IMG/VR virus record: IMGVR_UViG_2667528065_000005 | Strand: one strand, 5' to 3' | DNA: 17,986 nt | Source: a virus | Taxonomy: Duplodnaviria > Heunggongvirae > Uroviricota > Caudoviricetes | In this document: positions 2,629-17,986 of the stretch, one piece after another | How positions within the stretch are numbered: the first letter of the stretch is position 1 | How the letters are laid out: every line of letters starts with the position of its first letter | Program-made: the position numbers and the translations under genes | The notes under the pieces: model-generated | Databases searched by the model: none | Told to the model about the DNA's origin: nothing | What the model saw: the letters and a program-made list of their open reading frames with translations, nothing else

Positions 2629-2637
2629 TTCCGGCCT

Positions 2638-3117: not shown

Positions 3118-3593
3118 CCTGTTATTTATCCTTTTTTTAGCCTGTAAAAAAATATGTATCATGAGAAATTAGCCTATAAAAATATGTAATATTAGTAAAA
3201 CTCGTTATTTTTATGCATGTTTATATTCATCATACAATTATATAACCATTTCCCGGTATCGCTTCGCTTTAGCGAGAACTGGTCTTTTATTCGCACTCAG
3301 GAGTACATGTATGAGGATTTGCAGCGACCAACCTTGTATTGTTTTATTGACTGAAAAAGATGTCTGGATAAGGGTGAATGGGAAAGAACCTATTAGCCTT
3401 AAAGCTAACCACATGGCGTTATTAAATTGTGAAAATAATATTATCGACGTCTCCTCTCTTAATAACACTTTGGTTGCTCATATTAGTCACGACTATGCAT
3501 GCAAAGATTACCTCACGACATCATCAAAGATAACATCCGGTCTCGCAAATACCAGTATGGCAACGTAGCGCTACGCCCATCCTCACCCTTCCA

Positions 3594-3646
3594 TGCCTGA
3601 CGCCAGACGTCTTTCGCGTCTGCCTGACGCCAGACGTCTTTCGCGT
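3594..3646. repeat. Near-perfect 27-bp tandem duplication in adiY (26/27 identical); in-frame, duplicates CLTPDVFRV
   Basis: Read directly: tgcctgacgccagacgtctttcgcgt at 3594-3619 and 3621-3646. Confidence 0.95.
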
Positions 3647-3799
3647 TGCCGCGCAGCATAGCATGATGCCCGCTGAAACTGAGTCAGAAAAGGAACGAAC
3701 ACGTGCATTATTATTCACTGTGCTATCCCGTTTTCTCGACAGTAAAAAATTCCTTTCACTAATGATGTATATGTTACGTAATTGTGTAAGTGACAGCGT

Positions 3800-3841
3800 T
3801 TATCAAATTATTGAAAGCGATTATCAAATTATTGAAAGCGA
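3800..3841. repeat. Perfect 21-bp tandem duplication in adiY (ttatcaaattattgaaagcga x2); duplicates YQIIESD
   Basis: Read directly: 3800-3820 repeated at 3821-3841. Confidence 0.95.
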
Positions 3842-4267
3842 TATCCACAAAGACTGGAATCTTAGTATGGTAGCCAGTTGTTTATGTCTTAGCCCAAGTC
3901 TGTTAAAGAAAAAGCTGAAAAGCGAAAACACCAGTTATAGCCAAATAATCACCCACCTGCCGCATGCGTTATGCCGTAAATGAATTAATGATGGACGGTA
4001 AAAATATCTCTCAGGTATCACAGTCCTGCGGCTACAACAGTACGTCGTACTTTATTTCTGTCTTTAAAGACTTCTACGGTATGACGCCGCTGCATTATGT
4101 TAGTCAGCACAGAGAACGCACTGTCGCCTGATTTTTAACCTTAACGAAGAGCTATATTAATAACGGCATCAGCGATAACCCGGCCGATAATAATTCAACT
4201 ATCGAATGCAGGCGTATGATATGACGTAATTTATTGTCACGAAGCTCGCCTTCGCAGGAGTTTAATT

Positions 4268-4777
4268 ATGTCTTCGGATGCTGATGCTCACAAAGTGGGC
4301 TTAATCCCCGTCACCCTGATGGTGTCGGGGAATATTATGGGGTCAGGTGTTTTTCTGTTACCTGCAAACCTGGCCTCCACTGGCGGGATTGCTATTTATG
4401 GATGGTTGGTGACGATTATCGGTGCGCTGTCGGTGCGCTGGGGCTCTCGATGGTATACGCCAAAATGTCGTTCCTCGACCCAAGTCCTGGTGGTTCTTAC
4501 GCTTACGCCCGCCGCTGCTTTGGCCCGTTTCTCGGTTATCAAACCAACGTCCTCTACTGGCTGGCCTGCTGGATCGGCAATATCGCCATGGTGGTCATTG
4601 GCGTAGGATATTTAAGTTACTTCTTCCCGATTCTGAAAGATCCATTGGTATTAACCATCACCTGCGTCGTGGTGCTGTGGATCTTCGTCCTGCTGAACAT
4701 TGTCGGTCCGAAAATGATCACCCGCGTACAGGCCGTTGCTACCGTGCTGGCGCTGATCCCCATCGTCGGGATTGCCG
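4268..4777 (+). pseudogene. adiC: Arginine:agmatine antiporter AdiC, 5' portion only; frameshifted by an 11-bp tandem duplication and cut off by the prophage junction
   Basis: [54 protein letters not shown] in frame 2, then ...[47 protein letters not shown]...IPIVGIA in frame 1. Coding sequence diverges into unrelated DNA after about 4777. Confidence 0.85.
4419..4440. repeat. Perfect 11-bp tandem duplication (tcggtgcgctg x2) in adiC; frameshift
   Basis: Read directly: 4419-4429 repeated at 4430-4440. Confidence 0.95.
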
Positions 4778-4782
4778 GAGGG

Positions 4783-4935
<153 letters not shown>

Positions 4936-4944
4936 TTGCAGATA

Positions 4945-5334
4945 TTACTCTTTTTTCTCCGTATCTGCATCGGGTTCATCAGCAAATAGCTTGCCCTGCA
5001 TCCGATCCAGTTCTTCTTTTCTTACCCGCTTAACCACGCTGTAGACCCACTGAAGCGAAACACCAAATTTGCGGGCCAGTTCGTGGTGGTTGCGTCCGTT
5101 AAACTCCCTGAAGATTTCCCGGTCGCGCTGACTGACCTTCCATACCATGCCCATCGGGAAATAAACGTTTTGCCCGCCCCAGACCTGCATCATTCGGTTC
5201 GCGACGGCCTGACCAATCTGGTCGGCAACTTCGGGCTCAATATCAATAATCTCGCGAACGGTCTCAGAGGTATGCTGTGCCAGTTCCACCAGGAGTTCCG
5301 GCCCCTTACTTCGAAACTGATTCAGGTCGCTCAT
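4945..5334 (-). CDS. mor: Mor/C-family phage transcriptional activator
   Basis: 129 aa. C-terminal ...GGQNVYFPMGMVWKVSQRDREIFREFNGRNHHELARKFGVSLQWVYSVVKRVRKEE matches the recalled Mu Mor pattern (GGGQVYIPRG...RD..I...FNGRN..EL...YGV....VYK..RR). Confidence 0.75.
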   Translation of the reverse strand: MSDLNQFRSKGPELLVELAQHTSETVREIIDIEPEVADQIGQAVANRMMQVWGGQNVYFPMGMVWKVSQRDREIFREFNGRNHHELARKFGVSLQWVYSVVKRVRKEELDRMQGKLFADEPDADTEKKE

Positions 5335-5755
5335 GTTTGACTCCCGCAGCTCTGCGCTGCCACTTCTTCAGTTTCTCAATAACACTGCTTGCCTGTTCAG
5401 TACTGAGCCAGCGCAGGGCGCTGATGCCCGTTTCCCGCTTGATCCACCTCGCTAATGCATTTTCTGAACGGTCACGAACAATGCCGGCAGCAGCCATTTC
5501 AAGCCATAGCGCACGAATTTTCCTGGACTGCGGATGGTTATCAAGCGGTAAACCGGAGCTGGCTTTTCTGGCTGGTTTAACGCGAAAGCCTTTCTTTTTC
5601 ATGGATTCCAGCACGCAGTTTAGTTGTGTGGTATCCATTCCTTTGGTTGAGGCTTTACCGGTCAGCCCCTGTAACATCTGGCGGTAGGTGTCTTCATCCA
5701 TACCCAGTTCATTACGGGCAATATGGATAAGCTGTATCAGGCGTTTTTTCTGCAT
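5306..5755 (-). CDS. gemA: GemA-like phage protein (Mu gp16 / DUF1018 family)
   Basis: 149 aa. N-terminal LIQLIHIARNELGMDEDTYRQMLQGLTGKAS...GF pattern typical of GemA-family proteins. Overlaps the mor start by 29 bp. Confidence 0.65.
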   Translation of the reverse strand: MQKKRLIQLIHIARNELGMDEDTYRQMLQGLTGKASTKGMDTTQLNCVLESMKKKGFRVKPARKASSGLPLDNHPQSRKIRALWLEMAAAGIVRDRSENALARWIKRETGISALRWLSTEQASSVIEKLKKWQRRAAGVKHERPESVSK

Positions 5756-5756
5756 A

Positions 5757-5963
5757 TCATCTCCTTTTTTTCAGTCTGTCGGCAACAATGTCGGTTGCAG
5801 CTGGCAGGGTGACTGGCCAGAACAACATGACGGCGGTCATGTACAGGATGTAATGCGCGGTGTCGTAGTGCCTGCCATAGCCCAGGGAACGATGAAGTCT
5901 TGCGCTGCATGATCCTGCGTACATATACCAGAAAAGAAAACAGACAATGGTTTCAGTAGTCAT
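5757..5963 (-). CDS. Small hydrophobic protein (about 68 aa, two predicted TM segments), hypothetical
   Basis: Internal ATG at 5963 preceded by a GGGGAGG Shine-Dalgarno. The longer 120-aa frame would overlap the upstream gene. Confidence 0.4.
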   Translation of the reverse strand: MTTETIVCFLFWYMYAGSCSARLHRSLGYGRHYDTAHYILYMTAVMLFWPVTLPAATDIVADRLKKRR

Positions 5964-6183
5964 TCTGAATACCTCCCCATTCGATATGAATATTACGGGC
6001 AGCAATGACAGGGTCGTTATTCCACCATGCACCTGACATGTATTTTTCAACCTGTTCGCGTCCGGCAATAACACCAATTGTGATCCCCGGCCTGACGTTC
6101 TTAAAAAAGGCGCGGGCAAAAAGGTATCTGGCAGATATTCGGCAGGCTTTTAATTTCCGGCTTTTACCTGATAGCGTAATCAT
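5953..6183 (-). CDS. Hypothetical phage protein (76 aa)
   Basis: ATGA start/stop overlap with the upstream gene at 6180-6183 and a GGAGG upstream; fits tight operon packing. Confidence 0.45.
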   Translation of the reverse strand: MITLSGKSRKLKACRISARYLFARAFFKNVRPGITIGVIAGREQVEKYMSGAWWNNDPVIAARNIHIEWGGIQNDY

Positions 6184-6863
6184 CTGGCCTCCAGTTTCTG
6201 TTGTTCCTGCCCACTGACCGGGCGGTGCAGTCTGACGTTCTGCCCTTCACGAAACCCCGCATAGCGCGAGGCGTCGCCATTGCGGCTTCTTCCCGGTTTA
6301 CGCGCCCTGGTGGTTTGCGTCTGCGGGTATTTATGTTCCAGCCACTGCTGCATCAGTTCACGCTCATCATCGGTCAGGGCAAAGGACTGTATTTCACTGA
6401 TAACGGCCAGCACCCAGCCTTCGGCAAACTGGTCTCCACGGCTGGTGCGGGTGGCGGTTTTTATTCTTTTGTTCTGTGCACTGATATACTGCTGACGCGC
6501 CTTTTTCAGCTGACGGGCCAGCACTTCCCAGGTGTATGCAGCCAGTGCCGCACGTTCCCGGTTGCCGTAGAACCCCACAGACGGATGCGTGCCGGGGTGA
6601 ATGATGGAGTTAACACCAAATACCTCGCGGATGATGTTCATCAGGCCCAGCATGTAGCGCGGTGGACGGAGACTGCCTGTCGGCCAGTAGTGACTGATGG
6701 TTTCATCAATATCACTCATAGCAATGTCGGAATGTGTGATGCCGTGAACATCCATCAGTTTACGGGCTCGGCGCAGTGCCAGAGCGGCCTCGTGCGGGTT
6801 GCCGGATGCGGCCAGCGCCAGCAACTTTTTCAGTTTCTCAATGTGTTTATTCTGGTCTGTCAT
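6180..6863 (-). CDS. Hypothetical phage protein with DUF2786-like N-terminus
   Basis: Translation from the internal Met (MTDQNKHIEKLKKLLALAASGNPHEAALALRRARKLMDVHGI...) resembles the DUF2786 N-terminal pattern. ATGA overlap with the upstream gene at 6860-6863; an alternative start at 6899 is possible. Confidence 0.5.
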   Translation of the reverse strand: MTDQNKHIEKLKKLLALAASGNPHEAALALRRARKLMDVHGITHSDIAMSDIDETISHYWPTGSLRPPRYMLGLMNIIREVFGVNSIIHPGTHPSVGFYGNRERAALAAYTWEVLARQLKKARQQYISAQNKRIKTATRTSRGDQFAEGWVLAVISEIQSFALTDDERELMQQWLEHKYPQTQTTRARKPGRSRNGDASRYAGFREGQNVRLHRPVSGQEQQKLEAR

Positions 6864-7075
6864 TGTTCTGTATCTCCGGTATTTTTCTGCCGTTTCCATG
6901 CCCGGACAGCGTCGGACAGCTCTTTCAGGCTGTATGCTGCTTTAAGCTTTTCCCATAACCACTGTGTTGTTATGTGCATCAGCAGGGCAGCCAGGGCTGC
7001 CCCCGCACTGAGGCATGTCGCCAGGCCAGTAAGAATCAGTGTCCATGCGGTGATTTCCCTGAGTATGTCAGCCAT
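6860..7075 (-). CDS. Small membrane protein (71 aa), hypothetical
   Basis: Hydrophobic stretch WTLILTGLATCLSAGAALAALLM; packed in the operon. Confidence 0.45.
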   Translation of the reverse strand: MADILREITAWTLILTGLATCLSAGAALAALLMHITTQWLWEKLKAAYSLKELSDAVRAWKRQKNTGDTEQ

Positions 7076-7089
7076 TGAATGCCTCCCGG

Positions 7090-7386
7090 TTACTCGTTCG
7101 TGTAAATCACGCCCAGTCGTGCAGCCAGACGTTCCAGTTTTTTCTGTTTGTGGAAGTCAATCAGCCGGTCCATCCCCTGAAGGCGCAGTTGCTCTGTCAT
7201 GATTTCCACGTCTGCCAGCTCTGCCGCGAGGTCACTTTCGCTGCCCTGTCCGTTCAGGTTGCGGGCGGCACTGGCCGCCAGTTCAGCGGCCTCTTCTGCC
7301 AGTTTCAGGGCCTGTGCGTCCGGCCCGAAACGCTGCAGGGCCAGACGGTAGAGGGCGGTGCGGGTGAGTTCGGTGTTTCGTGTCAT
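7090..7386 (-). CDS. MazG-like nucleotide pyrophosphohydrolase domain protein (small all-alpha NTP-PPase)
   Basis: 98 aa with LKLAEEAAELAAS ... ELADVEIMTEQL, resembling the EExxE...E/D metal-binding motifs of MazG-like NTP pyrophosphohydrolases. Confidence 0.5.
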   Translation of the reverse strand: MTRNTELTRTALYRLALQRFGPDAQALKLAEEAAELAASAARNLNGQGSESDLAAELADVEIMTEQLRLQGMDRLIDFHKQKKLERLAARLGVIYTNE

Positions 7387-7395
7387 GCCGCGCCC

Positions 7396-7668
7396 TCAGT
7401 GCTTCCGGCTGACGGTGATGTGCAGGCCGCCTTCTGCAGTGGTTTCCATCCGGTACGGCACCTCATGCTCTGCCGTGTGGGTGAGTGTGTTCATCAGTAC
7501 CTGCAGGGCAGCCTCCTTTCCGTTGGTCGCCACAATGGCCTGTGTGGCCATGCTGATTAGCGCCGTCAGGACGTGCTTCACATCGGTGAGGTCGCGGCAT
7601 TCACACTCGTTGACATAGTGTTCAACAAGAGTTCGGGTGCGCTGTCGTGCTTCCTGTGGGGTAATCAT
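7396..7668 (-). CDS. Hypothetical phage protein (90 aa)
   Basis: ORF in operon register; 4-bp overlap with the upstream gene. Confidence 0.45.
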   Translation of the reverse strand: MITPQEARQRTRTLVEHYVNECECRDLTDVKHVLTALISMATQAIVATNGKEAALQVLMNTLTHTAEHEVPYRMETTAEGGLHITVSRKH

Positions 7669-7859
7669 TGCGCGTCCTCCCTGTCAGGGCGGGAGAATTC
7701 CATGACGGGCACGTCCGCCGAAAAATGCTGGCTGCAGTACGGGCAGACCAGGGTGACACGTACTGCAGGTATGTGATACTTACCGGACATCACGGCGATG
7801 GCGCTGTGAAAACGCAGGGCTGTTATATCCCTCTCGCACTGAATACATTTAAATATCAT
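7665..7859 (-). CDS. Small zinc-ribbon-like protein (CxxC...CxxC), hypothetical
   Basis: 64 aa with KCIQCE ... VCPYCS cysteine pairs. Confidence 0.45.
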   Translation of the reverse strand: MIFKCIQCERDITALRFHSAIAVMSGKYHIPAVRVTLVCPYCSQHFSADVPVMEFSRPDREDAQ

Positions 7860-7956
7860 AATTTAATTCTCCTCTGTTTCCGGCGTGCAGAAGCCCGCGG
7901 CGCTGACGCCGGAATAAAAAAGAAAATGTTTTTATTAAATAATTAACGTGGTGTGT

Positions 7957-8487
7957 TTACTGCACATCCTGCTCAAAAGGAATTATTGAAAAATCCTCAA
8001 TATCACTTTTTATGGTAATACCGGGAATATTTTTCACAGCCTCTTTTTCATTCAGAATGGCATCTTTATTTATTTCCTCCTTTACACGAATAAAGCGCTC
8101 AAGCCCCAGACGTCTCAGCAGTTCAATGACATTATCCGCCCCGCGAATGCTGACTGACGGCGGACGGTTTCGCCACTGCACCTCGCCGGTGGTGAGGTTA
8201 GCGAACTTCACCTTCCCGTTGCCGGTCAGTTCATCACGGTGCGCCTCACACCATGTCTGGATACCGGACTGCAGTTCGGCCATGCGTTTTTTCAGGCTCT
8301 CGGTGAGCGGGGCATAACGTGCAGTGATGTCGCCAATGGTGTCATTCATTTCTGTTTCAGCCCTGACCAGTTCACGTTGCGCGTCACCAAGCAGTCTGAT
8401 TCCCTCAATGACCTCTTCGCGTGTCCCCGGCACCCAGAGTGCTGCTGCGGCTTTGATACGTTTTGCCCCTTTTGTACTTTTTGCCAT
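7957..8487 (-). CDS. gam: Host-nuclease inhibitor Gam (Mu Gam-like DNA-end-binding protein)
   Basis: 176 aa. MAKSTKGAKRIKAAAALWVPGTREEV...TEMNDTIGDIT...WCEAHRDELTGNGKVKFANLTTGEVQWRNRPPSVSIRGADNVIELLRRLGLERFIRVKEEINK...GITIKSDIEDFSIIPFEQ aligns along its length with the recalled Mu Gam. Confidence 0.85.
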   Translation of the reverse strand: MAKSTKGAKRIKAAAALWVPGTREEVIEGIRLLGDAQRELVRAETEMNDTIGDITARYAPLTESLKKRMAELQSGIQTWCEAHRDELTGNGKVKFANLTTGEVQWRNRPPSVSIRGADNVIELLRRLGLERFIRVKEEINKDAILNEKEAVKNIPGITIKSDIEDFSIIPFEQDVQ

Positions 8488-8514
8488 ATTTTATGACTCC
8501 TCCTGTTGTGCTGA

Positions 8515-8784
8515 TTACCACAAAGATTCCGGCCACACGACGCGACAGCCGTGCAGTTCGAAAACGCCCTGACGGAAATGTCCCCTGTGGTCATGACCGG
8601 TATACAGATAACAGGCCTTTCCCTGCTCAAGCATGCGCATGCAATGCGCACTCCGGGAAACGCGGATGACAGGTTTGTTACCCCTGATGGTGATGCTTTG
8701 TACATCCGTGTTCGTCGCCTTAAGCGCCATAATGGCTGACTGCACTTTGCTGATTTGCTGGTTGATACCTGTGGTGGATTTCAT
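8515..8784 (-). CDS. Hypothetical phage protein (89 aa) between the MuB-like gene and gam
   Basis: ORF in operon register, 2 bp after the B-like stop. Confidence 0.45.
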   Translation of the reverse strand: MKSTTGINQQISKVQSAIMALKATNTDVQSITIRGNKPVIRVSRSAHCMRMLEQGKACYLYTGHDHRGHFRQGVFELHGCRVVWPESLW

Positions 8785-8786
8785 TA

Positions 8787-9953
8787 TTAAACCCCTTTGA
8801 CAACGTCAGCGTTGACCTGTGGAACCCCGATTTCAGCGGCCAGATTCATGGCGGCTATTACCAGGTTACTGACGGCCAGCGGATACAGCAGGCTGACCAT
8901 ATTTTTACGATGACTTCCCGGATTGCTCAGGCGGGCACGTATGGCATCCACTGCGCTGGCGTCCATAATGTCCGTCAGTTGTTTACCGGCCCGTTGCAGT
9001 TTGAACGTCAGAAACTCTTCAAGGTTATTGTCCAGAGGCAGAAGTTCGACCACCTCACAGCGCTGAACGACTTCACGGACTTCCATATTGCGTTCAGACA
9101 GTTTTGTCGCCAGTTCCGGCTGGCCAATCAGCACGATGGACAGCAGTTTTTTGAAACCGGACTCCAGCTCAAAAAAGCGTTTGAGGTGTTTCAGTGTCGG
9201 AATGGGCAGACTGTGGGCCTCCTCAATCACCAGAACGTGGCTGAACCCCGCCTGGCTGCTGTCTTTCAGGACGCGATGCAACTGGCGAAAGCGGGCGTCC
9301 TGACTGCGTCTGATGCTTTCCAGTGGTGCGATGGTACTGATAATGGCTTCGGCAATCGCTGCTGCCTTCAGGGTTTTCCCTTTCACATCGTTGTCTTCCA
9401 TAGCGATGATGTATGGCTCGATAACAATTACCGGCGCATTCTCGCGGTTGATACGTTCAGTCAGGTCGCGGCGCAGCGTGGATTTACCCGCACCGGACTC
9501 ACCGATGACGGCCATAAACCCACCATGACGGGCTGTCTGGTACAACGCCTCACGCACGTAGCGAATATCCGGGGTGGTGAACACATCATCAGAACCCTGC
9601 ATGGCTTCGTCGGCGAACGGGTCACGGAAAAGACCAAACGCTTTTTTGGTTGCTGGAAATAACACCTGTTTTTTGAGTAACATATTCTCTTCCTCACTGA
9701 GGCTCGTTTTATCTGTGGTACCCGCTGTACGGGGCGTGGCCGCGCCCTGTACAGCATCAAAACTCTTCGTTGTATCAATCCCCTGACTTTCCAGCCAGGA
9801 CGCAAGACGCCGGCGCACTTCTCCGGGGCTGGTGCGGGGCCACGCGTTATGATTCACAATCTGGGCCAGCGTGGCCTCAGAAACATCGACAGCTCTCGCC
9901 ACCACCGCCTGTGGAATACGGGCCTCTTTCAGTTGCTGCTTCAGTACCAGCAT
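8787..9953 (-). CDS. MuB-like AAA+ ATPase (transposition target/activator protein)
   Basis: Walker A GESGAGKST and Walker B HVLVIEEAH; N-terminal HTH-like region. Likely start is the ATG at 9953 with GGAGGG upstream (the longest frame extends to 9992). Immediately downstream of the transposase gene. Confidence 0.8.
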   Translation of the reverse strand: MLVLKQQLKEARIPQAVVARAVDVSEATLAQIVNHNAWPRTSPGEVRRRLASWLESQGIDTTKSFDAVQGAATPRTAGTTDKTSLSEEENMLLKKQVLFPATKKAFGLFRDPFADEAMQGSDDVFTTPDIRYVREALYQTARHGGFMAVIGESGAGKSTLRRDLTERINRENAPVIVIEPYIIAMEDNDVKGKTLKAAAIAEAIISTIAPLESIRRSQDARFRQLHRVLKDSSQAGFSHVLVIEEAHSLPIPTLKHLKRFFELESGFKKLLSIVLIGQPELATKLSERNMEVREVVQRCEVVELLPLDNNLEEFLTFKLQRAGKQLTDIMDASAVDAIRARLSNPGSHRKNMVSLLYPLAVSNLVIAAMNLAAEIGVPQVNADVVKGV

Positions 9954-9963
9954 GTTTCCCTCC

Positions 9964-11733
9964 TCAGTTGCCGTTAACAATGCTGATAACACTGCTGCGG
10001 GCCGGTGTGGTCAGCGTGGCCATGACTTCATCCAGTGCGGCTTCCGGTACGCCGTCCGGGTACTGTGCCGTTAACTGGCGGTAATGTTCCGGCGTCCAGG
10101 TAAGGCCGTCGGCGCTGAACTTATCGCGCAGGGCTTTCGCGGCCTCCACATGAGTCATGGGACGTTGTTCAGTGCGCGGCCCGCGTACGTCAGAGGCCTG
10201 ACCACGCTTCGGCATATAGGCCGGAAGTGTGGTGTCGTCGATATGTTTATACGGGTCAAGCCGCCCGCCGAACGGCAGCGCCTTCGCCTTGCGTGCGGCG
10301 GCTGCATCTGCGGCGTTGTCTGTACCGGTAACCAGCGCTTCGGTTTCTTTTGCCGCCATCTGTGCCGGGGTTTCCGGCAGGGCTTTGTAACTTTCGCCAA
10401 ATACCGCCGCGCCTTCAGCAAAGCCAAACTCGTTCTTTCTGACCTCTTCGACCAGGAAGAACGTCTCGTGGCCGTCCTCACCGGTCAGAACCACCTGTGC
10501 CACATCGCTGCGCCATGGGTTACGGGTAATCATCAGTTTTTCACCAACCAGTACGCCCGGTACCGTTGATACGTCAAATTCAGTGCCCCGGAACGAGACA
10601 CGAAGTTTTGGCGTGACTTTGCGGAGTTCTGGTGCCGCCACAGCCAGTTCACGACATACCTCAACGGAAGGCGCTTTTTTCAGCTGCTCAGCAGTAATCT
10701 TCAGCCAGATATCCGTGCGGGTTTTACCGTGGCGGCTGTGAACAGCCGTGGCGTTAAAGTGGCTGCGCCATTTCGCGGCCAGCGCGTTGAGTTCTTCCAG
10801 ACTGTGAACCGGCCGGAACTTCAGACCCGGCTCCAGCTTGCGTTCGATAATGTCACGCGCCTTTTCCACCTGTCCGGTGGCGCGGGCGTTATGCGGCTTG
10901 TGCGCTATCAGGTCAATGCCCAGTGAGCGGCACATGTTTTTCGTCATACCCGCGGTGTTTGCCGAACCGGGGTCGAGATAGAGTATTTTTGGCACGCCGT
11001 GCAGCACGTCTGCGCCGCCACGCTCCTGCATGGCGTTGATAAGCACAGAACACAGGTTCTCACCGGATTCCGCACCCGTCACATACTCAACGTAAATCCA
11101 GCCGCTGGCATGGTCGGTAATCTCGTAACTCCACACGCGGTCACTGGCGATACGGGCAAGGTTAGCGGGTTTGTTCTTGTAGAACTTCGCGCTGTCCATC
11201 ACCTGCAGCCCTTTGTGTCCATTGCTCAGGTAGTAAAGCGTGCAGAGCGAGGCATCAATCTGCCAGACATGATTGGGATGCAGACTGGCCACTTCGGTAT
11301 GCGGCGCAGGAGCATCCAGTTGTTCCGGGTGCAGGCCATAGTTACGCAGGGCACGACTGATGGCATCTTCGGACAACGGGAAAAACTCACCGGTGGTTTC
11401 ATCTGTTCTGCCTGCGGAGATAAAGCCGTTAGCCCGCAGGGTTTCCACTGCATCCGCGATGGAATAGAGACGCTTACCGTTCTTGCGGGTGGCCTCACGC
11501 AGTGTGGCAGATATCAGCGCGGCTTCGTCGCGGGTCAGGGCGCTGCGTCCGGCATCAGCGCGTTTTTTGCGTTTATCAGTCACAGAGACCTCCTTCAGCC
11601 TGCGCAGCAGAGTGGCGCGGGACATGCCAAGTTCAGCACAGGCAGCGTCGTATATTGCACCGCGTTTACCATGCCCCGCGTCACGTGCCGCGCGGGCGAC
11701 ATAAACCAGTCGTTCAGTCAGGGCAGCATTCAT
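9964..11733 (-). CDS. DDE transposase (Mu A-like / rve-fold)
   Basis: 589 aa. N-terminal HTH-like region, then candidate catalytic residues in HVWQIDAS, LYLDPGSANT and NARATGQVEK. GGAGG upstream of the start. Confidence 0.8.
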   Translation of the reverse strand: MNAALTERLVYVARAARDAGHGKRGAIYDAACAELGMSRATLLRRLKEVSVTDKRKKRADAGRSALTRDEAALISATLREATRKNGKRLYSIADAVETLRANGFISAGRTDETTGEFFPLSEDAISRALRNYGLHPEQLDAPAPHTEVASLHPNHVWQIDASLCTLYYLSNGHKGLQVMDSAKFYKNKPANLARIASDRVWSYEITDHASGWIYVEYVTGAESGENLCSVLINAMQERGGADVLHGVPKILYLDPGSANTAGMTKNMCRSLGIDLIAHKPHNARATGQVEKARDIIERKLEPGLKFRPVHSLEELNALAAKWRSHFNATAVHSRHGKTRTDIWLKITAEQLKKAPSVEVCRELAVAAPELRKVTPKLRVSFRGTEFDVSTVPGVLVGEKLMITRNPWRSDVAQVVLTGEDGHETFFLVEEVRKNEFGFAEGAAVFGESYKALPETPAQMAAKETEALVTGTDNAADAAAARKAKALPFGGRLDPYKHIDDTTLPAYMPKRGQASDVRGPRTEQRPMTHVEAAKALRDKFSADGLTWTPEHYRQLTAQYPDGVPEAALDEVMATLTTPARSSVISIVNGN

Positions 11734-11736
11734 TGG

Positions 11737-12648
11737 TTATGCCTCCAGCCCGTTAATCTGTGGCGTCGGCTCAGTCAGCCATGAAGGCGCGGCATTGCCT
11801 GTTGGCTCATCCGGCAGGTCAAATGTGGAGCGCAGGCTACGCGCTGTGCTTTCCAGTTGACAGACCAGGCCTGCCATGAAGTCTCTGGGGGTATCAATCA
11901 TGTTTTCAGCACAATATGCGCACAGCGTCTCAAAAGCGCTGGACAGTCGAACGGCGATAGCAGATTCCGCCTCAACCGCTAATGCTGTCACTTCCGCCCG
12001 CAGCTTCTTAACCTCTTCATCAGGCTCAGGCGGCTGAATACGGGATTTCTTCTCCAGTCTGGTGGAGAGTGAGTCTATTTTTTCATTTTTGTCAGCGAGT
12101 ACGCGCTGTTGTGCTGCGTTGGTTTCGCGCGCTTCGCGCAGGGCCTGACGCAATTCACGTACTGACATGCGATCAACGTCGTCAAGCGTCAGGCCGGCAA
12201 CTGTGCCGCCGTCGGCCAGTTCGGCAAGCTCTTCGTCGTCTTCTGTCATTAATTCGAAAAGTTTGGCTTTTCCCAAATGTGCCAACGTTGGCACATTTGG
12301 TTTCAGCGCCGGGGATAAGTATTTTGTCGATGCTTGCATCATTCTCACAGATGTCCGGTATGCCAGCCCCAACTCACTTTCAAGAATCTTTATAAACTCC
12401 CCGTGTGGTTCATTTTCCTTAAGGATTATCAGCCGCTTACCTGCCTCCAGCATGGCCTCAGCGCTCTGTGCCATATAAAAGCGTGCCTCATGGACAACAC
12501 GATCGCGCTCATAGGGCAGACCATCGCCGAACTGTTGCATGATTTCCATGCGATGCTGTGTCATGGCGTTTAGACTGACATTGAGATCATCCGACAGCGG
12601 TACCTCGACGTTCAGTTCAGTGCTAACCGGTGATTTGGTGCGTCCCAT
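11737..12648 (-). CDS. Hypothetical phage protein (303 aa) with a coiled-coil-like acidic central region
   Basis: Long ORF with AAGGAG upstream of the start; lies between the Ner-like genes and the transposase. Confidence 0.55.
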   Translation of the reverse strand: MGRTKSPVSTELNVEVPLSDDLNVSLNAMTQHRMEIMQQFGDGLPYERDRVVHEARFYMAQSAEAMLEAGKRLIILKENEPHGEFIKILESELGLAYRTSVRMMQASTKYLSPALKPNVPTLAHLGKAKLFELMTEDDEELAELADGGTVAGLTLDDVDRMSVRELRQALREARETNAAQQRVLADKNEKIDSLSTRLEKKSRIQPPEPDEEVKKLRAEVTALAVEAESAIAVRLSSAFETLCAYCAENMIDTPRDFMAGLVCQLESTARSLRSTFDLPDEPTGNAAPSWLTEPTPQINGLEA

Positions 12649-12658
12649 TGATTACTCC

Positions 12659-12967
12659 TTACAAACGACTACCTGAAATAACACGTTGGTTGATTTCGTT
12701 AATGCGATCCTGTGCACGTGCCATCTCGTTACTGTGGGCCATGGCGATCTGCAGCAACTGGATGCCTGGTGCGAAACGCCCGTTTTCTAGTTTCAGAGCC
12801 AACCCTTCTTCAATGAGCGTGTTAAGTGCCCGGTTGATGTTTGCCGGTGATTCGTGCAGTGCAACCGCTAGTTCCCCGTTAGAAACACCGTTCAAAGCGT
12901 GGCCACGTAAGGCCTTAAGAACGCGCAAAATACGGGTACCTGAGCTTGATGTATTTGGTTTATTCAT
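12659..12967 (-). CDS. Winged-helix/HTH DNA-binding protein (102 aa)
   Basis: GTRILRVLKALRGHALNGVSNGELAVALHESPANINRALNTLIEEGLA resembles an HTH of the IclR/MarR type. 4-bp overlap with the upstream gene. Confidence 0.5.
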   Translation of the reverse strand: MNKPNTSSSGTRILRVLKALRGHALNGVSNGELAVALHESPANINRALNTLIEEGLALKLENGRFAPGIQLLQIAMAHSNEMARAQDRINEINQRVISGSRL

Positions 12968-13188
12968 GACGCCTCCTTAAGGATACCGGGGGTAACTTCT
13001 TTACCTATTGCAACCGATAGATCTCGCAAAATCCGATAAGTCAAACGACCGCGAGGTAGTTCACTTTTACCAGCCCAGCGACTGACTGCCTGGGTGACTG
13101 TTCGTGGTTCATAGCCCGCGTTAAGCGCGAACTGGCGCAAGCTACTGCCTCGTTCAACCAGCCGTGCCCGAACTTGTTGTTTGTTCAT
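12964..13188 (-). CDS. ner: Ner-like DNA-binding protein (Ner/Nlp family)
   Basis: VRARLVERGSSLRQFALNAGYEPRTVTQAVSRWAGKSE matches the recalled Mu Ner pattern (ADVIAGLKKRKLSLSALSRQFGYAPTTLANALERHWPKGE). Divergent from the repressor gene. Confidence 0.65.
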   Translation of the reverse strand: MNKQQVRARLVERGSSLRQFALNAGYEPRTVTQAVSRWAGKSELPRGRLTYRILRDLSVAIGKEVTPGILKEAS

Positions 13189-13276
13189 ATGCACCGTGTT
13201 CCTGTTAGGTTATGATGTACTCTATTGGGTCTATTGTACACACCCAAATGAGTGTGTCAAATTGAGATATGTTCAA
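13189..13276. promoter_or_regulatory. Divergent ner / repressor control region with candidate operators
   Basis: 88-bp gap between divergent genes. Contains inverted repeat ACACAC-N8-GTGTGT (13238-13257) and direct repeat tctattg x2 (13221-13236). Confidence 0.4.
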
Positions 13277-13684
13277 ATGAGTACAAAAGAGAGATTGCGT
13301 GAAGTGATGGATGCTAATGGCATGACAATAAAGGCATTATCTAACTTATCAAAAATTCCATATCGCTCACTTCAAAACTATTTGCGTGGAGAGAGAGAAC
13401 CAAACGCAGAGGCTCTTGTTGCGCTAAGCACCCATTTGGGTGTATCGATCGATTGGCTACTTACCGGTAAAGAACATATTCCATCTAAAGAAATTGTTGC
13501 TGTACCAACACAACATCAATTCAGCCCGTCAGACCTTAAAATGCTTGAACTTCTAAACCAGTTAGATCCTGAGGTTCGGCGAGATCTCATGCGAGGCGCT
13601 GAAGAAAAACAGCGTGTGATTGAGATGGAAAAACAACTGAAGGAATTATCCGCAACGATTGAGCGGTTAAAAAATGTGGGTTAA
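13277..13684 (+). CDS. XRE-family (Cro/CI-type HTH) phage repressor with C-terminal coiled-coil
   Basis: MSTKERLREVMDANGMTIKALSNLSKIPYRSLQNYLRGEREPNAEALVALSTHLGVSIDWLLTG is a typical XRE HTH. Divergent from the early operon. The ORF track's longer frame starts at 13181, but that would overlap ner. Confidence 0.65.
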   Translation: MSTKERLREVMDANGMTIKALSNLSKIPYRSLQNYLRGEREPNAEALVALSTHLGVSIDWLLTGKEHIPSKEIVAVPTQHQFSPSDLKMLELLNQLDPEVRRDLMRGAEEKQRVIEMEKQLKELSATIERLKNVG

Positions 13685-13754
13685 TGTGTTCCTAACGAGA
13701 ACATATAGCAGAAATTATTTGCCATTAAGCAATAAAAAATAAGGTGGATAGCTA

Positions 13755-14762
13755 ATGTCTGAGCAGACCATTGAAGTTAAACACGTTGTAGTTCACATTT
13801 TAGACAAACAACAAAATGGAGACGCTTCTGAGAGATTGAGTCCTGAAGAAGGTCTAGTTACTGAAGCCTCCCAGCGCCTTATAAACGATATTTGTGCAAA
13901 ATATGCAGGACGCACAGGTAAAGGTTATGGCTATTTTGAAGGCGATACGGATAACTATCCTATGGAACGAATGGCTGGGGACTTTCTCGAAGGTGTTGAT
14001 GATTTCTACCAAAGTTCCTGCCGAATGATGCATCACCTGACGGAACGTTCTCAGCGAGAAAACATGGCTACTGGTGGTTATGTTCTTTTTGCAAATATCG
14101 TGATAGGACACAATGAACACCTGTTGATAGCTATTGTAAGCGCTACCATTGGATCCACTGTCACAGATGATTTTAACATCCAAGATAGTACCTATCTTGA
14201 TATTGCTAAGCTGCGTATGGCTGGGCGCATTGACTTAACCGCGTGGGAAAGTGGCGCAGAGCGCTATATCAGTTTTCTTAAGGGGCAAGGTAATGTTTCA
14301 AACTATTTTAAACAGTTCCTCGGCTGTAATGATGTCTTAATCGCCAAACGAGAGTCTGAAAAGTTACGTGACGTTTTAAAAGCATTTGCGGCAGAGAAAG
14401 GACTTGACGGCGCTGAAAAAGATGCATTTCTTAAGAGTGCGTTTGAACACTTACATGCACTAAGTAAGGCTGGTGAACCACTTAGTCTTGAAACCCTTGT
14501 TAATGCCATTTGGCCCCAGGCTCCCGAGGAGTTATCTGGTAAACTTGCTGCTGAAGAGTTGGAGTTATCGGATGGCTTCGTTCCTGATGGTCGAGTCATT
14601 CGGGCTCTGGTATCTTTTAAAGGCAAGTCTAAATATTGGGAACTTAAGTTTGACCGGGAAGGGAAAACTGAAGGCTATATTGATTATGATCCGGAAACAA
14701 ATATTATCACCCTACGTAATGTACCTGAAGAATTTAGGGAAATGTGGATGACTGAGGTTTAA
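13755..14762 (+). CDS. Divergent YejK/NdpA-family nucleoid-associated protein homolog (335 aa), prophage cargo
   Basis: Shared blocks with recalled E. coli YejK along the whole length: GGYVLFANIVIGHNEHLLIAIV, YLDIAKLRMAGRIDLTAWE, YISFLKGQ, YFKQFLGCNDVLIAKRE...AEKGLDGAEKDAF, ITLRNVPEEFRE. AAGGTGG Shine-Dalgarno before the ATG. Confidence 0.65.
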   Translation: MSEQTIEVKHVVVHILDKQQNGDASERLSPEEGLVTEASQRLINDICAKYAGRTGKGYGYFEGDTDNYPMERMAGDFLEGVDDFYQSSCRMMHHLTERSQRENMATGGYVLFANIVIGHNEHLLIAIVSATIGSTVTDDFNIQDSTYLDIAKLRMAGRIDLTAWESGAERYISFLKGQGNVSNYFKQFLGCNDVLIAKRESEKLRDVLKAFAAEKGLDGAEKDAFLKSAFEHLHALSKAGEPLSLETLVNAIWPQAPEELSGKLAAEELELSDGFVPDGRVIRALVSFKGKSKYWELKFDREGKTEGYIDYDPETNIITLRNVPEEFREMWMTEV

Positions 14763-14764
14763 TC

Positions 14765-15970
14765 GTGGCGATTTCATTTGAGATGCTGACAGATCTGTAT
14801 CGTCGTATGGAATTCCAAGAGGGGTTTCGTGTCGGTTCGCTGTTGCTCTTAGATCAGTCCGATTGTGATCTGGTTGATACTTTGCTTGATGATCCTCGTG
14901 AATATGGTCTTTCTATTGATACAGGCACTATCGCTCCAGGTAACACGATCATCCTACGTGTGACGTCACCACGGAGTGGACTGGGACTTGTGTTTTCCAC
15001 CCATGAAAAATTGCTAAATGCTCCAAAGCATCAGTGCCTTGAGCCAGCTAATTACTTCATCCTAGAAACAAAGTTTCGTAATGATGATGAAGATATCCCC
15101 GTTTTCATCAGCAACTACCGGAAGATTCTCGAGTTCGTTAACCTGCTAAAAGAGGCCGCGGCCTACTTTGATAACTCAACTTGTCAGTTAGTTTTTCTGA
15201 AAAAAGAAGTTATCAAGCTATTACCGCACTTCGCTGCAGAAAATGTACAAAATTTGCAAAGAGAGTATCTTGATAACCTTATAGCTTGTTTCAATGATGA
15301 TACCCATAAGGATCAGAAGCTAGATATTCTGATTGAAAGTATCCAAGCAGTTAGTGATGGAATTGATTCACCTCTAGTATTCGCTTATTTACTGGACAAT
15401 ATTCAGCGTCTGCATGAAAAGTTTCTGAAAGGGTATCGTATCTACTCTTCTGGATTCTCTTATGACAAAGTAATGGATCAACTGCGTGCTGCAAAAGTCG
15501 AAGAAATGGGTAAAATCCACAAAGCGTTTTCAGATATCCAGAACCATATACTTGGCATTCCTGTTGCCTCTGTTATCGTAGCTACCCAATTCAAAGTGGC
15601 TACGAAATGGTCAGGCCAAGGGATAACAAACACAATAATTCTTCTGGGATGCATTTTTGCTGCAACGTTAATCTGGCTGGCACTTTCGAACCAGATGCAA
15701 TCTATAAAGGCCTTAGGCGAAGAAATTGAATACAAAGAAAAACAGATTAATAAGGAATATTCCTTCATTAAAGATGACGTGGCTGGTGTATTTAGCAGTA
15801 TTTCTGCGCGACTAGACACGCAGAAACGTACGTTCTGGATTATACGTGGTGTTCTAGTTATGGGAATTATTACCGCTATCACTGTTTATTTTTGGTACAC
15901 AAAACCAGCCCTTGACTTCATGCAGTACTTGATTCACTGCATGAAGTCTTACTATTCGGTCAAAAGTTGA
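14765..15970 (+). CDS. Hypothetical 401-aa protein: soluble N-terminal region plus two or three C-terminal transmembrane helices; coupled to the YejK-like gene
   Basis: GTG start 2 bp after the upstream stop with GAGGT upstream (an alternative ATG lies at 14783). Hydrophobic helices TNTIILLGCIFAATLIWLAL and FWIIRGVLVMGIITAITVYFWY. No family recognised. Confidence 0.6.
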   Translation: MAISFEMLTDLYRRMEFQEGFRVGSLLLLDQSDCDLVDTLLDDPREYGLSIDTGTIAPGNTIILRVTSPRSGLGLVFSTHEKLLNAPKHQCLEPANYFILETKFRNDDEDIPVFISNYRKILEFVNLLKEAAAYFDNSTCQLVFLKKEVIKLLPHFAAENVQNLQREYLDNLIACFNDDTHKDQKLDILIESIQAVSDGIDSPLVFAYLLDNIQRLHEKFLKGYRIYSSGFSYDKVMDQLRAAKVEEMGKIHKAFSDIQNHILGIPVASVIVATQFKVATKWSGQGITNTIILLGCIFAATLIWLALSNQMQSIKALGEEIEYKEKQINKEYSFIKDDVAGVFSSISARLDTQKRTFWIIRGVLVMGIITAITVYFWYTKPALDFMQYLIHCMKSYYSVKS

Positions 15971-16730
15971 GGATAATGAGTTCCTTCTTGCGACTGGATT
16001 TGCCAGTGATCTTGAGGTTGTAGCTGATATCAACCGACTGAATATTTAGACCGTTGAATGCCTGCCGCATTTCCGGGATATCGTTCACCGATATAATCAT
16101 CTTCCCTTTGATCCTGCGTGCTAAATCTGCCATATGATCATAATTTTCTAGTCCGAACTCCACACCATAACCTTCCGTTCCCCAGTATGGAGGGTCACAG
16201 TAGAACAACGTATGCGGGCGATCATATCGTTCTATGCACTGTTGCCAGTCCATGTGTTCTATGACCGTTCTGGAAAGCCGCAGGTGTGCCGCTGACAGTT
16301 CTTCTTCAATACGCAGCAGGTTGAAGCGTGGCGGGGATATGGTGGAGGTACCAAAGCTGTGCTCCGCCACCTTGCCTCCAAACGCCTGCTTCTGAAGGTA
16401 GTAGAACCGTGCTGCACGCTGGATATCCGTCAGTGTTTCTTCCGGGGTGATCTGCAGCCATTTGTAGATCTGCCGGCTGACCAGCGCCCATTTGAACTGG
16501 CGTACAAATTCTTCCAGATGATGTTTTACCACCCGATACAGGTTCACCAGTTCACCGTTGATATCATTAATGACTTCGATCTTGCCGGGTACCTTAAGAA
16601 AATAGAGCGCTGCTGCCCCACAAAACGGCTCCACATAACATTCATGCGCCGGAAACAGCGGCAGGATGTGTTTTGCAAGGCGGCGTTTGCCACCAATCCA
16701 TGGAACGATGGGTAATGTCTGCATTTTCAT
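15960..16730 (-). CDS. Dam-type N6-adenine DNA methyltransferase (D12 class)
   Basis: 256 aa with FCGAAALYF (AdoMet-binding region) and the catalytic DPPY motif. Convergent with, and overlapping by 11 bp, the 3' end of the 401-aa gene. Confidence 0.8.
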   Translation of the reverse strand: MKMQTLPIVPWIGGKRRLAKHILPLFPAHECYVEPFCGAAALYFLKVPGKIEVINDINGELVNLYRVVKHHLEEFVRQFKWALVSRQIYKWLQITPEETLTDIQRAARFYYLQKQAFGGKVAEHSFGTSTISPPRFNLLRIEEELSAAHLRLSRTVIEHMDWQQCIERYDRPHTLFYCDPPYWGTEGYGVEFGLENYDHMADLARRIKGKMIISVNDIPEMRQAFNGLNIQSVDISYNLKITGKSSRKKELIILNF

Positions 16731-16772
16731 AATCTGTAAGCCTTTTACAATTATAAAAAATATGGCAGGCTA

Positions 16773-16794
16773 GTCTGGTCTCGCGAGACTGACT
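16773..16794. promoter_or_regulatory. About 22-bp imperfect palindrome with a perfect 12-bp core GTCTCGCGAGAC; candidate operator or activator site
   Basis: Read directly: agtctg-GTCTCGCGAGAC-tgact, core at 16778-16789. Lies about 48 bp upstream of the dam start and about 190 bp upstream of the first lysis gene. Confidence 0.35.
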
Positions 16795-16835
16795 GAACCT
16801 CGGTCGGCTCACAGCGCATTCCTGTGGGGCGATGG

Positions 16836-16873
16836 CCAGCCCGGTGTTCGGGTACCGGGCTGGTCGTTCTTTC
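16836..16873 (+). terminator. GC-rich hairpin (ccagcccgg / ccgggctgg, 10-nt loop) followed by a T-rich tract; terminator- or attenuator-like
   Basis: Read directly; function uncertain because no plus-strand gene ends just upstream. Confidence 0.3.
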
Positions 16874-16977
16874 AAAGTCATCATGCAGTGCACGTTTACA
16901 TCTTCACTATTAACGCTGTTTAAAATCCGTATCCCGCCACATTTGTGATGCTGTCTCCACCAAACGAGGAGACACAC

Positions 16978-17328
16978 ATGAAAAACCTGAAAAAATTCAT
17001 TCCCCCTGTTAAAAAACCTCGCCTCAGCGGCTGGCTGCTGACCTCAGTGCTGTTGCTGGGCATCATCGCTCTGGTCTCGCCACAGCAGTTGCCTGTTGTG
17101 ATCTACAAGCTGGCACTTATCACGCTGGCAGCAGTGCTGGGTTACTGGCTTGACCGTTCGCTCTTCCCCAAAGCCCGTCCCGGTCAGTACCTGAAACATG
17201 ACGACAGGCTGATGGCTGAAGGGCGTTTCCCGGTACAGACCGGCCTTCACCTGGTGTTTTCTGCTGCGTTAATCCGCCGTGCACTGATTGTTGCAGCGGT
17301 CTGCCTGGCTGTGGCAACAGGACTGTGA
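16978..17328 (+). CDS. Small membrane protein with about three TM segments; holin-like candidate, first gene of the lysis cassette
   Basis: Start MKNLKKFIPP preceded by GAGGAG. Hydrophobic segments WLLTSVLLLGIIALV, VIYKLALITLAAVLGYWL, ALIVAAVCLAVATGL. Directly upstream of the transglycosylase gene. Confidence 0.5.
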   Translation: MKNLKKFIPPVKKPRLSGWLLTSVLLLGIIALVSPQQLPVVIYKLALITLAAVLGYWLDRSLFPKARPGQYLKHDDRLMAEGRFPVQTGLHLVFSAALIRRALIVAAVCLAVATGL

Positions 17329-17330
17329 CC

Positions 17331-17986
17331 ATGAACTGGCCTCAAATCACCCTCATTATTCTGTTCGCCTTTGGTCTGGGCGTAACCGCCATCAGACACG
17401 GAGAACCACGTAACGATAAATACAGCTTCTGGTGGCAGCTTGCTGGCAACCTGGTGATTGTCTGGCTGCTCTGGTGTGGCGGCTTTTTCAGCCAGGCATG
17501 CGCAGCGCAGCCCCCGCAGGCTGCGCTGCAGTATCGCGATGATGTGATCCGTAATGCCCGGCTTGAATGGGGACTGTCTGCGCCGGTGGCCGATTTCGCC
17601 GCGCAACTGCATCAGGAAAGCGGCTGGCGACCTGATGCGATCTCGCCGGCTGGCGCTCAGGGACTGGCGCAGTTCATGCCTGCCACTGCCGACTGGATAA
17701 GCCAGTTGATACCGATGCTGAGCAGTCGTGAGCCGTTTAATCCGGCATGGGCTATCCGGGCGCTGGTCAGCTATGACCGCTGGCTGTGGCAGCGTGTCAG
17801 CGCCGCCAGTGACTGCGAGCGTATGGCCATGACACTGTCGGGCTATAACGGTGGTCTGGGCTGGGTACAACGGGACAGGCGGCTTGCATCACAGAAAGGT
17901 CTGGACAGCACCCGCTGGTTCGGACATGTCGCCACGGTGAATGCCGGACGCAATGCGGCCAGCTGGCGGGAGAACCGCCATTATCC
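17331..17986 (+). CDS. Lytic transglycosylase (SLT-domain) endolysin with N-terminal hydrophobic segments, possibly SAR-type; 3' end beyond window
   Basis: Own translation from the ATG at 17331: MNWPQITLIILFAFGLGVTAIRHG...WWQLAGNLVIVWLLWCGGFF... then the SLT catalytic region QESGWRPDAISPAGAQGLAQFMPATA. Open to the window edge; not in the ORF track because it has no stop. Confidence 0.75.
   Translation, partial: MNWPQITLIILFAFGLGVTAIRHGEPRNDKYSFWWQLAGNLVIVWLLWCGGFFSQACAAQPPQAALQYRDDVIRNARLEWGLSAPVADFAAQLHQESGWRPDAISPAGAQGLAQFMPATADWISQLIPMLSSREPFNPAWAIRALVSYDRWLWQRVSAASDCERMAMTLSGYNGGLGWVQRDRRLASQKGLDSTRWFGHVATVNAGRNAASWRENRHY

Follow-up and report, generated by a model that had tools for sequence, protein, structure and literature searches.

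Orphan methylases encoded by phages alter host epigenomes and aid restriction evasion. To our knowledge, the silencing of methylases in lysogens of temperate phages is known in detail only for Mu mom. Most cis-antisense RNAs repress, via degradation of the resulting duplex or a threshold effect. In IS10/Tn10, studied in the Kleckner laboratory, an upstream sequence reportedly pairs with the ribosome-binding site and so silences read-through transcripts, and a short, stable antisense RNA is said to be made as well. In phage Mu, a structure that inhibits translation of mom is opened by the zinc-finger protein Com (PMC3299994). Here, we analyze the region upstream of a DNA adenine methylase gene (hereafter, dam) of a Mu-like prophage contained in a 17,986-nucleotide stretch of DNA (IMG/VR virus record IMGVR_UViG_2667528065_000005; this whole stretch is referred to as the window, and all positions are those of the window unless another sequence is named). 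We consider it probable, although by no means assured, that this region is an uncatalogued RNA-level control element of phage dam that combines a self-silencing leader with an antisense countertranscript and carries a perfect 12-bp palindrome at the tip of a hairpin.

The conservation of this element, the covariation of its helices, its strand asymmetry, its obligate link to dam, and its independence from the Mor-like activator and the repressor of the prophage are established in this analysis. The gene, the element (hereafter, the cassette), and the palindrome are located as follows.

15960-16730, minus strand: dam, a D12-class N6-adenine DNA methyltransferase gene (256 aa, ATG start, CDPPYW in the translation)
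16728-16873, minus strand: conserved dam regulatory cassette, a full-length match to the covariance model R1 (146 nt; cmsearch, 112.7 bits, E=4e-29)
16778-16789, no strand: perfect 12-bp palindrome GTCTCGCGAGAC, forming the apex of hairpin H3 in the sense leader and, by prediction, the hairpin at the 5' end of the countertranscript

In an alignment of the window with close relatives (E. coli MSB1_9D, Phi06_2974B, KP12, DEF10, and PhiKM), the 144 bp that precede dam (16731-16874) are better conserved across the six sequences than the 5' coding region of dam itself. The conserved block is bounded by a sharp mosaic breakpoint exactly at GAAAGAACGACC, beyond which other genes are found. The same architecture upstream of dam is present in Enterobacterales and in many Beta- and other Gammaproteobacteria among 80 genomic loci that were fetched with the Dam protein. 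The R1 model, built from 25 trimmed leaders, produced 71 full-length matches among the 72 sources searched (Gamma- and Betaproteobacteria), all on the dam strand. In part of the family, phage B3 included, an open reading frame (ORF) for a Com-like zinc-finger protein lies between the cassette and dam; the R1 match ends at the dam start in the loci lacking com and at the com start in the com-type loci. For example, the cassette of phage B3 (L003 2711-2848) is directly ahead of com (ORF47, at 2846), and that of another locus (L049 3705-3845) is ahead of the com ATG at 3844. The cassette also precedes dam in phiE125 (Stanholtvirus), VP882 (Hapunavirus), and the Microcystis phage Mae-JY22.

An independent search of viral contigs, with a DNA pattern derived from the cassette alone (CTGTGAGCC...CCAAGGC...AAGCCTA), retrieved 37 contigs. 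In 36 of these, a dam homolog starts on the same strand, 25-55 nt downstream; in the remaining one, the contig edge cuts the sequence off. Apart from Dam and, at some loci, Com, no protein travels with the cassette. No Com-like ORF is present upstream of dam in the window, and tblastn searches with the Com proteins of B3 and Mu detected nothing in the window or the prophage. A permissive search of the window against Rfam 15 gave no match at E<=10, and phage B3 gave chance-level matches only; in the literature, we found no description of such a dam leader or antisense RNA element.

Several loci show modified forms or annotations of the cassette. In E. coli DEF10 (L006), dam is deleted except for approximately its first 75-80 nt, with other genes in its place, and the cassette is retained (L006 3079-3224, 95.9 bits). 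In Pantoea stewartii (L009 3910-3985), the match is limited to model positions 64-141, the 5' part having been replaced, which points to a recombination breakpoint inside the cassette. In B3, the annotated hypothetical ORF46 sits on the cassette and ORF45 ends at the 5' edge of the cassette (L003 2579-2804); in PhiKM, a 90-nt 5' extension of the Dam coding sequence sits on the cassette as well (L002 3913-4003). The small hypothetical ORFs before the B3 dam and the PhiKM extension are explained by this location, and all probably are annotation artifacts.

Read 5' to 3' on the dam strand, the cassette consists of an A-rich stretch and GCGAC, hairpin H1 (16863-16836), hairpin H2, CCAAGGC, the long and irregular hairpin H3, AAGCCUA, the AU-rich stretch H4, and AAAGGCUUACAG with the Shine-Dalgarno sequence, followed by the ATG. 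These local elements are complemented by a long-range helix, P1. The elements of the sense-strand model are the following.

16734-16744, minus strand: 3' strand of P1, sense GGCUUACAG at 16742-16734, overlapping the dam Shine-Dalgarno sequence
16767-16800, minus strand: extended hairpin H3, from the minimum free energy (MFE) fold of the sense leader and the alignments
16806-16814, minus strand: 5' strand of P1, sense CUGUGAGCC, consisting of the 3' arm of H2 plus AGCC
16810-16826, no strand: hairpin H2, CACAG-N7-CUGUG, its 3' arm shared with the 5' strand of P1

The base of H3 is formed by AGGUU (16800-16796) paired with AGCCU (16771-16767), and the middle, by AGUC/GACU (16772-16775 with 16791-16794). 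The dam Shine-Dalgarno sequence AAGG (16744-16741) lies 10 nt ahead of the ATG at 16730. The folding energy of the sense leader is -50.6 kcal/mol (z=-4.2 compared to shuffles).

The helices of this model covary. In a 71-sequence alignment that was fitted to the model, 81.0% of the cells contain standard pairs, compared to 34.5-41.8% when the 3' partners are slid by one to three columns, and the covariation score reaches 0.384; none of 500 shuffles (0.171) scored as high, and the slid controls did not exceed 0.105. Changes on both sides are seen in 34 of the 39 pairs, including all 11 pairs of H1 and all 9 pairs of P1. The cells of H2 are paired in 90.7% of the cases (4-60% in slid controls), and at its pair 71:91, 42 sequences have AU and 22 have GC. 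In P1, 86% of the cells are paired, and pair 92:225 occurs as GU (38 sequences), AU (15), and GC (11). Covariation of column 91 is seen with its partner in H2 as well as with that in P1. RNAalifold, when applied to plain MAFFT alignments, recovered H1 and P1 only; H3 required a model-guided alignment and analysis of individual sequences. A putative basal helix under H1, P0, the register of which differs from group to group, is not part of the model.

The strand on which a helix functions can be read from its wobble pairs: G-U is tolerated only in the transcribed strand and reads A-C on the other strand. On the dam strand, P1 contains 89 G-U cells versus 27 A-C cells, and among 68 distinct leaders, the P1 duplex is stabler on the sense strand in 44 versus 21 (p=3e-6). 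This G-U excess, together with the sense-strand stability, indicates that P1 is a feature of the dam mRNA that would sequester the ribosome-binding site. In B3 and phiE125, the cassette lies within co-directional late operons, and sense transcription may arrive from upstream; in the window, the sense transcript must start between 16874 and the holin gene. Several candidate sense promoters were rejected: a TCAACA-like hexamer after H1 has no matching -10 element; AAGGCT before H3, although nearly invariant, does not keep the T at -7 across lineages; and a perfect TATAAT on the dam strand (16755-16750) is not conserved in MSB1_9D or KP12.

The asymmetry of H1 is the opposite of that of P1. On the sense strand, this hairpin shows A-C in 67 and G-U in 30 cells, and the segment that contains it (alignment columns 1-62 with flanks) is better folded on the antisense strand in 55 of the 68 distinct leaders (p=3e-9), with mean energies of -23.0 kcal/mol for the antisense and -18.4 kcal/mol for the sense strand. 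All 58 distinct flanks carry, after H1 on the antisense strand, a tail rich in pyrimidines and U (6.2 U per 14 nt on average), for example, UCGUUCUUUC (window), UCUUUU (other Enterobacterales), and GUCUUUUUU or UGUUUUUU (Betaproteobacteria). Thus, the strand-biased hairpin with its U-rich tail has the form of an intrinsic terminator. This predicted terminator and the other antisense features are placed as follows.

16744-16771, plus strand: predicted sigma-70-type promoter (-35 element TTTACA, 16744-16749; 16-bp spacer ending in TGG; -10 element CAGGCT, 16766-16771)
16778-16873, plus strand: predicted countertranscript of approximately 96 nt (approximately 116 nt from an alternative promoter, near 16758)
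16836-16873, plus strand: hairpin H1 with its tail; the stem, an inverted repeat of 100% complementarity, is GC-rich and 10 bp long (16836-16845 paired with 16854-16863)
16864-16873, plus strand: tail TCGTTCTTTC after H1, part of the predicted intrinsic terminator

The nearly invariant sense motif AGCCUA reads TAGGCT on the opposite strand, where the variants across lineages are TAGGCT, TAGAAT, TAAGAT, TACGCT, TAGCCT, TAAGCT, TACACT, and CAGGCT. The middle positions vary, whereas TA at the start and T at the end are retained (TAnnnT), which is the signature of a sigma-70 -10 element. At a distance of 16-17 bp upstream, the -35 variants are TTTTCA, TTTCCA, TTTGCA, and TTTACA (TTTnCA). In Paraburkholderia, TAGAAT abolishes the pairing at the base of H3 on the sense strand and improves the -10 element. 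In 38 of 53 distinct leaders, the start of the palindrome lies 6-8 nt past the -10 element and so coincides with the predicted +1 or +2 position. The predicted 96-nt countertranscript folds at -49.5 kcal/mol (z=-4.2 compared to shuffles). The antisense strand of a relative (L032) matches the Rfam model RF00236, ctRNA_pGA1, with 32.7 bits, below the gathering score of 45 (E=3e-5).

The original prediction had singled out the palindrome and the longer imperfect dyad around it, and this description is accurate: the perfect 12 bp at 16778-16789 are flanked by the outer arms AGTC (16772-16775) and GACT (16791-16794), with unequal spacers of 2 and 1 nt. Perfect 12-bp palindromes number 8 in the window, against 4.9 +/- 2.2 expected, and approximately 0.05 are expected in the 247-bp spacer. 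By itself, the palindrome is not significant; its significance comes from conservation across relatives. Perfect palindromes without a spacer reach at least 8 bp in 43 and at least 12 bp in 30 of 60 distinct H3 regions, and 1.2% of shuffled H3 regions attain a 12-bp palindrome. The palindromes of related cassettes comprise 33 different sequences, while the position and the symmetry stay. Their identity does not follow the relatedness of Dam: a Serratia locus (L048), with a Dam 74% identical to that of the window, has the same palindrome, whereas a Xenorhabdus locus (L016), at 85%, has a different one. Photorhabdus has, in place of the palindrome, a hairpin with G-U pairs, the fold of which is better on the sense strand. 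Because a self-complementary loop (a 1 in 16 chance) is not needed by a hairpin, the symmetry itself seems to be selected or generated. Dam was considered as the palindrome-binding protein and rejected, given that palindrome identity is independent of Dam identity and most of the centers lack adenine or GATC.

In the mechanism that we propose, the dam-strand cassette would be a structured 5' leader in which the P1 pairing of CUGUGAGCC (16814-16806) with GGCUUACAG (16742-16734) buries the Shine-Dalgarno sequence. The dam mRNA, including read-through transcripts, would thus be translationally silent by default. On the opposite strand, a sigma-70-type promoter would start a constitutive countertranscript of approximately 96 nt at the first base of the palindrome. 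This RNA would end at the hairpin 16836-16863 with its U-rich tail and would be able to pair along its entire length with the 5' two thirds of the leader, a region that contains the 5' strand of P1 but not the ribosome-binding site. Together, the leader and the countertranscript would prevent the lysogen from making a DNA-modification enzyme that is potentially harmful and would gate the synthesis of this enzyme in lytic growth. We infer the production of both RNAs as well as the role of the countertranscript, be it repressing or activating.

Several observations weigh against this reading. The fit of the covariation alignment to the model favors structure, and the slid controls share this bias. 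The MFE fold of the window leader consists of H2 and a local hairpin over the start codon, not P1, so that P1 rests on covariation and not on the energy of the window sequence. We found no convincing promoter for the sense transcript within or just upstream of the cassette. On the antisense side, the -10 element of the window, CAGGCT, fits 2 of the 6 consensus positions, the TGn extension and a -35 element with a 5 of 6 fit being the only help, and a simple scan flagged, instead, a site 20 bp upstream (TTTTCA 16724/TACAAT 16751); with these two promoter-like sites, the 5' end of the countertranscript would be near 16758 or near 16778. H1 is absent from the terminator list of the same scan. Furthermore, the countertranscript covers the 5' strand of P1, not the Shine-Dalgarno sequence, and therefore could activate dam by anti-sequestration. 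Finally, the perfect palindromy through the center of the apex is not explained by the RNA model, and an explanation at the DNA level or one involving a shape-specific protein retains a modest probability.

One explanation of this kind is that a dimeric protein, be it the repressor, Mor, or another factor, binds the palindrome as an operator in double-stranded DNA, at approximately +1 of the antisense promoter and some 48-59 bp ahead of the dam ATG; the original prediction had named the repressor and the Mor-like activator. The conserved palindromy without a spacer (at least 8 bp in 43 of the 60 H3 regions), which a loop would not require, and the fixed position relative to the antisense -10 element are what an operator would lead one to expect, and the TATAAT at 16755-16750, which has no recognizable -35 element in the window, makes a nearby activator site conceivable. 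Nevertheless, we judge an operator to be decidedly unlikely, and the roles suggested for the repressor and Mor are unsupported. The palindrome is a single copy, with no further copy with 2 or fewer mismatches in 41.7 kb that include most of the prophage and approximately 9 kb of the flanking chromosome, and inspection of the early control region (12968-13276) revealed no related dyad. Its sequence drifts through 33 versions, regardless of how closely the Dam proteins are related, in cassettes that are accompanied only by Dam and sometimes Com, and Com has no homolog in the window or the prophage. The cassette follows dam rather than the Mu-like backbone: VP882, a phage with protelomerase and ParA, has the cassette with the palindrome and no Mor or repressor homolog detectable by tblastn (best E=0.78), so that the palindrome is independent of the Mor-like activator and the repressor. 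The helices around the palindrome covary as nucleic acid structure, Photorhabdus has the sense-favored, G-U-containing hairpin in its place, and the TATAAT is not retained even in MSB1_9D and KP12.

Another possibility is that the cassette is a leader that functions in the sense strand only, as a riboswitch-like, protein-binding, or temperature-sensing 5' untranslated region of dam or com-dam, with no antisense RNA made and with the promoter- and terminator-like features of the other strand as by-products of the conservation of the sense RNA. G-U exceeds A-C on the sense strand in P1, the base of H3, and H4; the nearly invariant single-stranded segments (CCAAGGC, AAGCCUA, the GCGAC motif, and the loop of H1) resemble those of ligand- or protein-binding RNAs; and the strand common to H2 and P1, with column 91 covarying with both partners, is reminiscent of a switch. 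Such a leader is, however, unlikely to be the whole story: H1 consistently favors the antisense strand, where a U tract comes after it, the variation of AGCCUA obeys TAnnnT, to the point that TAGAAT in Paraburkholderia abolishes the sense pairing at the base of H3, the palindrome begins at the predicted antisense +1, and the antisense strand of L032 resembles a plasmid countertranscript model. Moreover, we know of no sense-strand role for an A-rich tract ahead of a hairpin. It is also conceivable that the palindrome is a chance occurrence, such palindromes being common in the window (8 vs 4.9 expected), and that 16836-16863 is a mere terminator shielding the lysis operon from repressor-cargo read-through; in this prophage, the hairpin does separate rightward transcription from the holin gene. 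This combination is barely credible given that two proteobacterial classes share the position of the palindrome, the hairpin, and all that lies between, with compensatory changes, and that these features also occur in phages in which all neighboring genes are co-directional (for example, B3 and phiE125).

The leader-countertranscript reading leaves the obligatory palindrome, without a spacer and with free sequence, as a specific puzzle. A tentative extension, which we consider possible but hardly favored, is that this sequence-free, position-fixed palindrome at the antisense +1 is recognized by shape, within an undescribed, widespread leader/countertranscript module of dam and com-dam. Recognition might involve a structure-specific factor that would see the identical hairpin in both RNAs or, alternatively, an extruded DNA cruciform. 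If this is correct, shape recognition would add a type of control that is not known to act on DNA-modification genes.

The gene downstream of the cassette is what the original prediction had taken it to be, a D12-class adenine methyltransferase gene with a DPPY motif. The protein contains CDPPYW, matches Pfam PF02086 (MethyltransfD12; E=7.3e-28, 98.4 bits against a cut-off of 22, residues 11-234 covered), and is labeled DNA adenine methylase in RefSeq for the identical stretch; methyl transfer is predicted. Its relatives in the PDB are DpnM, EcoDam, and T4-type Dam (E from 5e-17 to 2e-14). Motif I for S-adenosylmethionine (EPFxGxxA) is represented by EPFCGAAA, which aligns with EPFVGGGA of DpnM and EPFVGAGS of EcoDam, and motif IV is DPPY. 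L122, R124, and P134 of EcoDam, which we take to be base contacts or GATC recognition residues in the EcoDam-DNA structures, are aligned with K, A, and S in the window protein; Y119 is aligned with F, and R137 is retained. Given K, A, and S at the contact positions, GATC specificity should not be assumed for this enzyme. As the original prediction suggested, the methylase may act in anti-restriction or in regulation. The protein is 66% identical to phage B3 ORF48 and belongs to the ORF48 family, which is distinct from the non-specific Hia5 family and for which activity of ORF48 had not been demonstrated as of the same report (PMC3299994). Literature searches on the target specificity of the phiE125/VP882-type Dam family gave nothing usable. 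The convergent overlap of dam with its neighbor, noted in the original prediction, is also confirmed by the ORF coordinates.

15960-15970, no strand: stretch of 11 bp shared by dam and the plus-strand gene of the 401-aa cargo protein (14765-15970), which converge at their 3' ends

This overlap is particular to the cargo of the window; MSB1_9D and KP12 have a 47-bp gap at this place.

Megablast comparison with E. coli genomes showed that positions 1-4782 of the window are chromosome and 4783-17986 are prophage, and that this prophage is found at differing chromosomal sites, as expected of a transposable phage. Position 4783 is the left end of the prophage; in strain RIVM_C036569, the same prophage occupies the hyf locus, and in other genomes, it is located elsewhere. 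The close relative PhiKM is classified as a Bcepmuvirus, which identifies the element as a BcepMu-like transposable prophage. The Mor gene, the product of which matches Pfam PF08765 (E=1.3e-43), occupies the far left of the prophage, and compared with Mu, the early operon has the opposite orientation. The gene order is as follows.

Minus strand: early operon, encoding an IclR-type helix-turn-helix protein, DUF3102, an rve transposase (9964-11733), its AAA+ partner, Gam, GemA, and Mor (4945-5334)
Both strands: rest of the prophage, namely, repressor gene (plus), variable cargo region, dam (minus), and lysis and morphogenesis operon (plus)
Plus strand: lysis and morphogenesis operon, the first gene of which encodes the holin (ATG at 16978)

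Between the repressor gene and dam, the window carries a two-gene cargo (13755-15970, plus strand), and relatives have other genes there. The first gene encodes a protein of the NA37 nucleoid-associated family (Pfam, E=1e-80); the second product, of 401 aa, has no Pfam match and weakly matches KwaA, the membrane component of Kiwa, in PADLOC (E=8e-5, residues 262-394). The two genes may be a defense or moron module. An inverted repeat, TGTCTCC/GGAGACA (16952-16974, plus strand), overlaps the Shine-Dalgarno sequence of the holin gene ahead of its ATG; the 6-bp core GTCTCC/GGAGAC is retained in MSB1_9D and Phi06_2974B, with a changed loop, and the repeat may control holin translation. The half-site GTCTC/GAGAC that it has in common with the palindrome is probably a coincidence. 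CTATTAACGCnnTTTA (16909-16930, plus strand), followed by TAAAAT in the window, is kept before the first gene after the dam cassette in six relatives and is a candidate late promoter, possibly, a Mor-dependent one. It was rejected as a repeated late-promoter motif, with a single good copy in the prophage locus, not above chance.

With respect to known systems, the window enzyme resembles EcoDam, T4 Dam, and DpnM in its Pfam D12 domain, EPFxGxxA, and DPPY, and differs from EcoDam in having K, A, and S in place of L122, R124, and P134. If the proposed control is confirmed, the cassette would be a second, RNA-based solution to silencing, found in Mu-like, lambdoid, and telomere phages of Gamma- and Betaproteobacteria, and a new RNA family, absent from Rfam 15, with a clear target. 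As in the com-mom operon of Mu, a late, potentially harmful DNA-modification gene would have its ribosome-binding site buried in mRNA structure (PMC3299994). However, the two are not homologous (R1 scores at most 5.4 bits on the com-mom region of Mu), the cassette lies upstream of com whereas the site of action of Com in Mu is the com/mom junction, and the window has no Com and a methylase rather than Mom. The proposed combination of fold-back inhibition with a hairpin-rich antisense RNA from a gene-facing promoter, predicted in the case of the cassette, is shared with RNA-IN/RNA-OUT of IS10; unlike in IS10, the antisense RNA would leave the ribosome-binding site uncovered, no internal sense promoter was found, and there is no sequence relationship. 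Like the plasmid countertranscripts ctRNA_pGA1 and CopA/CopT, the predicted RNA has 2-3 hairpins, the last of which is a U-tailed terminator, and is directed against the leader of the gene that it would control; it differs from them in that the score of L032 is sub-threshold and the window is unmatched, and in that the target is a phage methylase and not a replication initiator.

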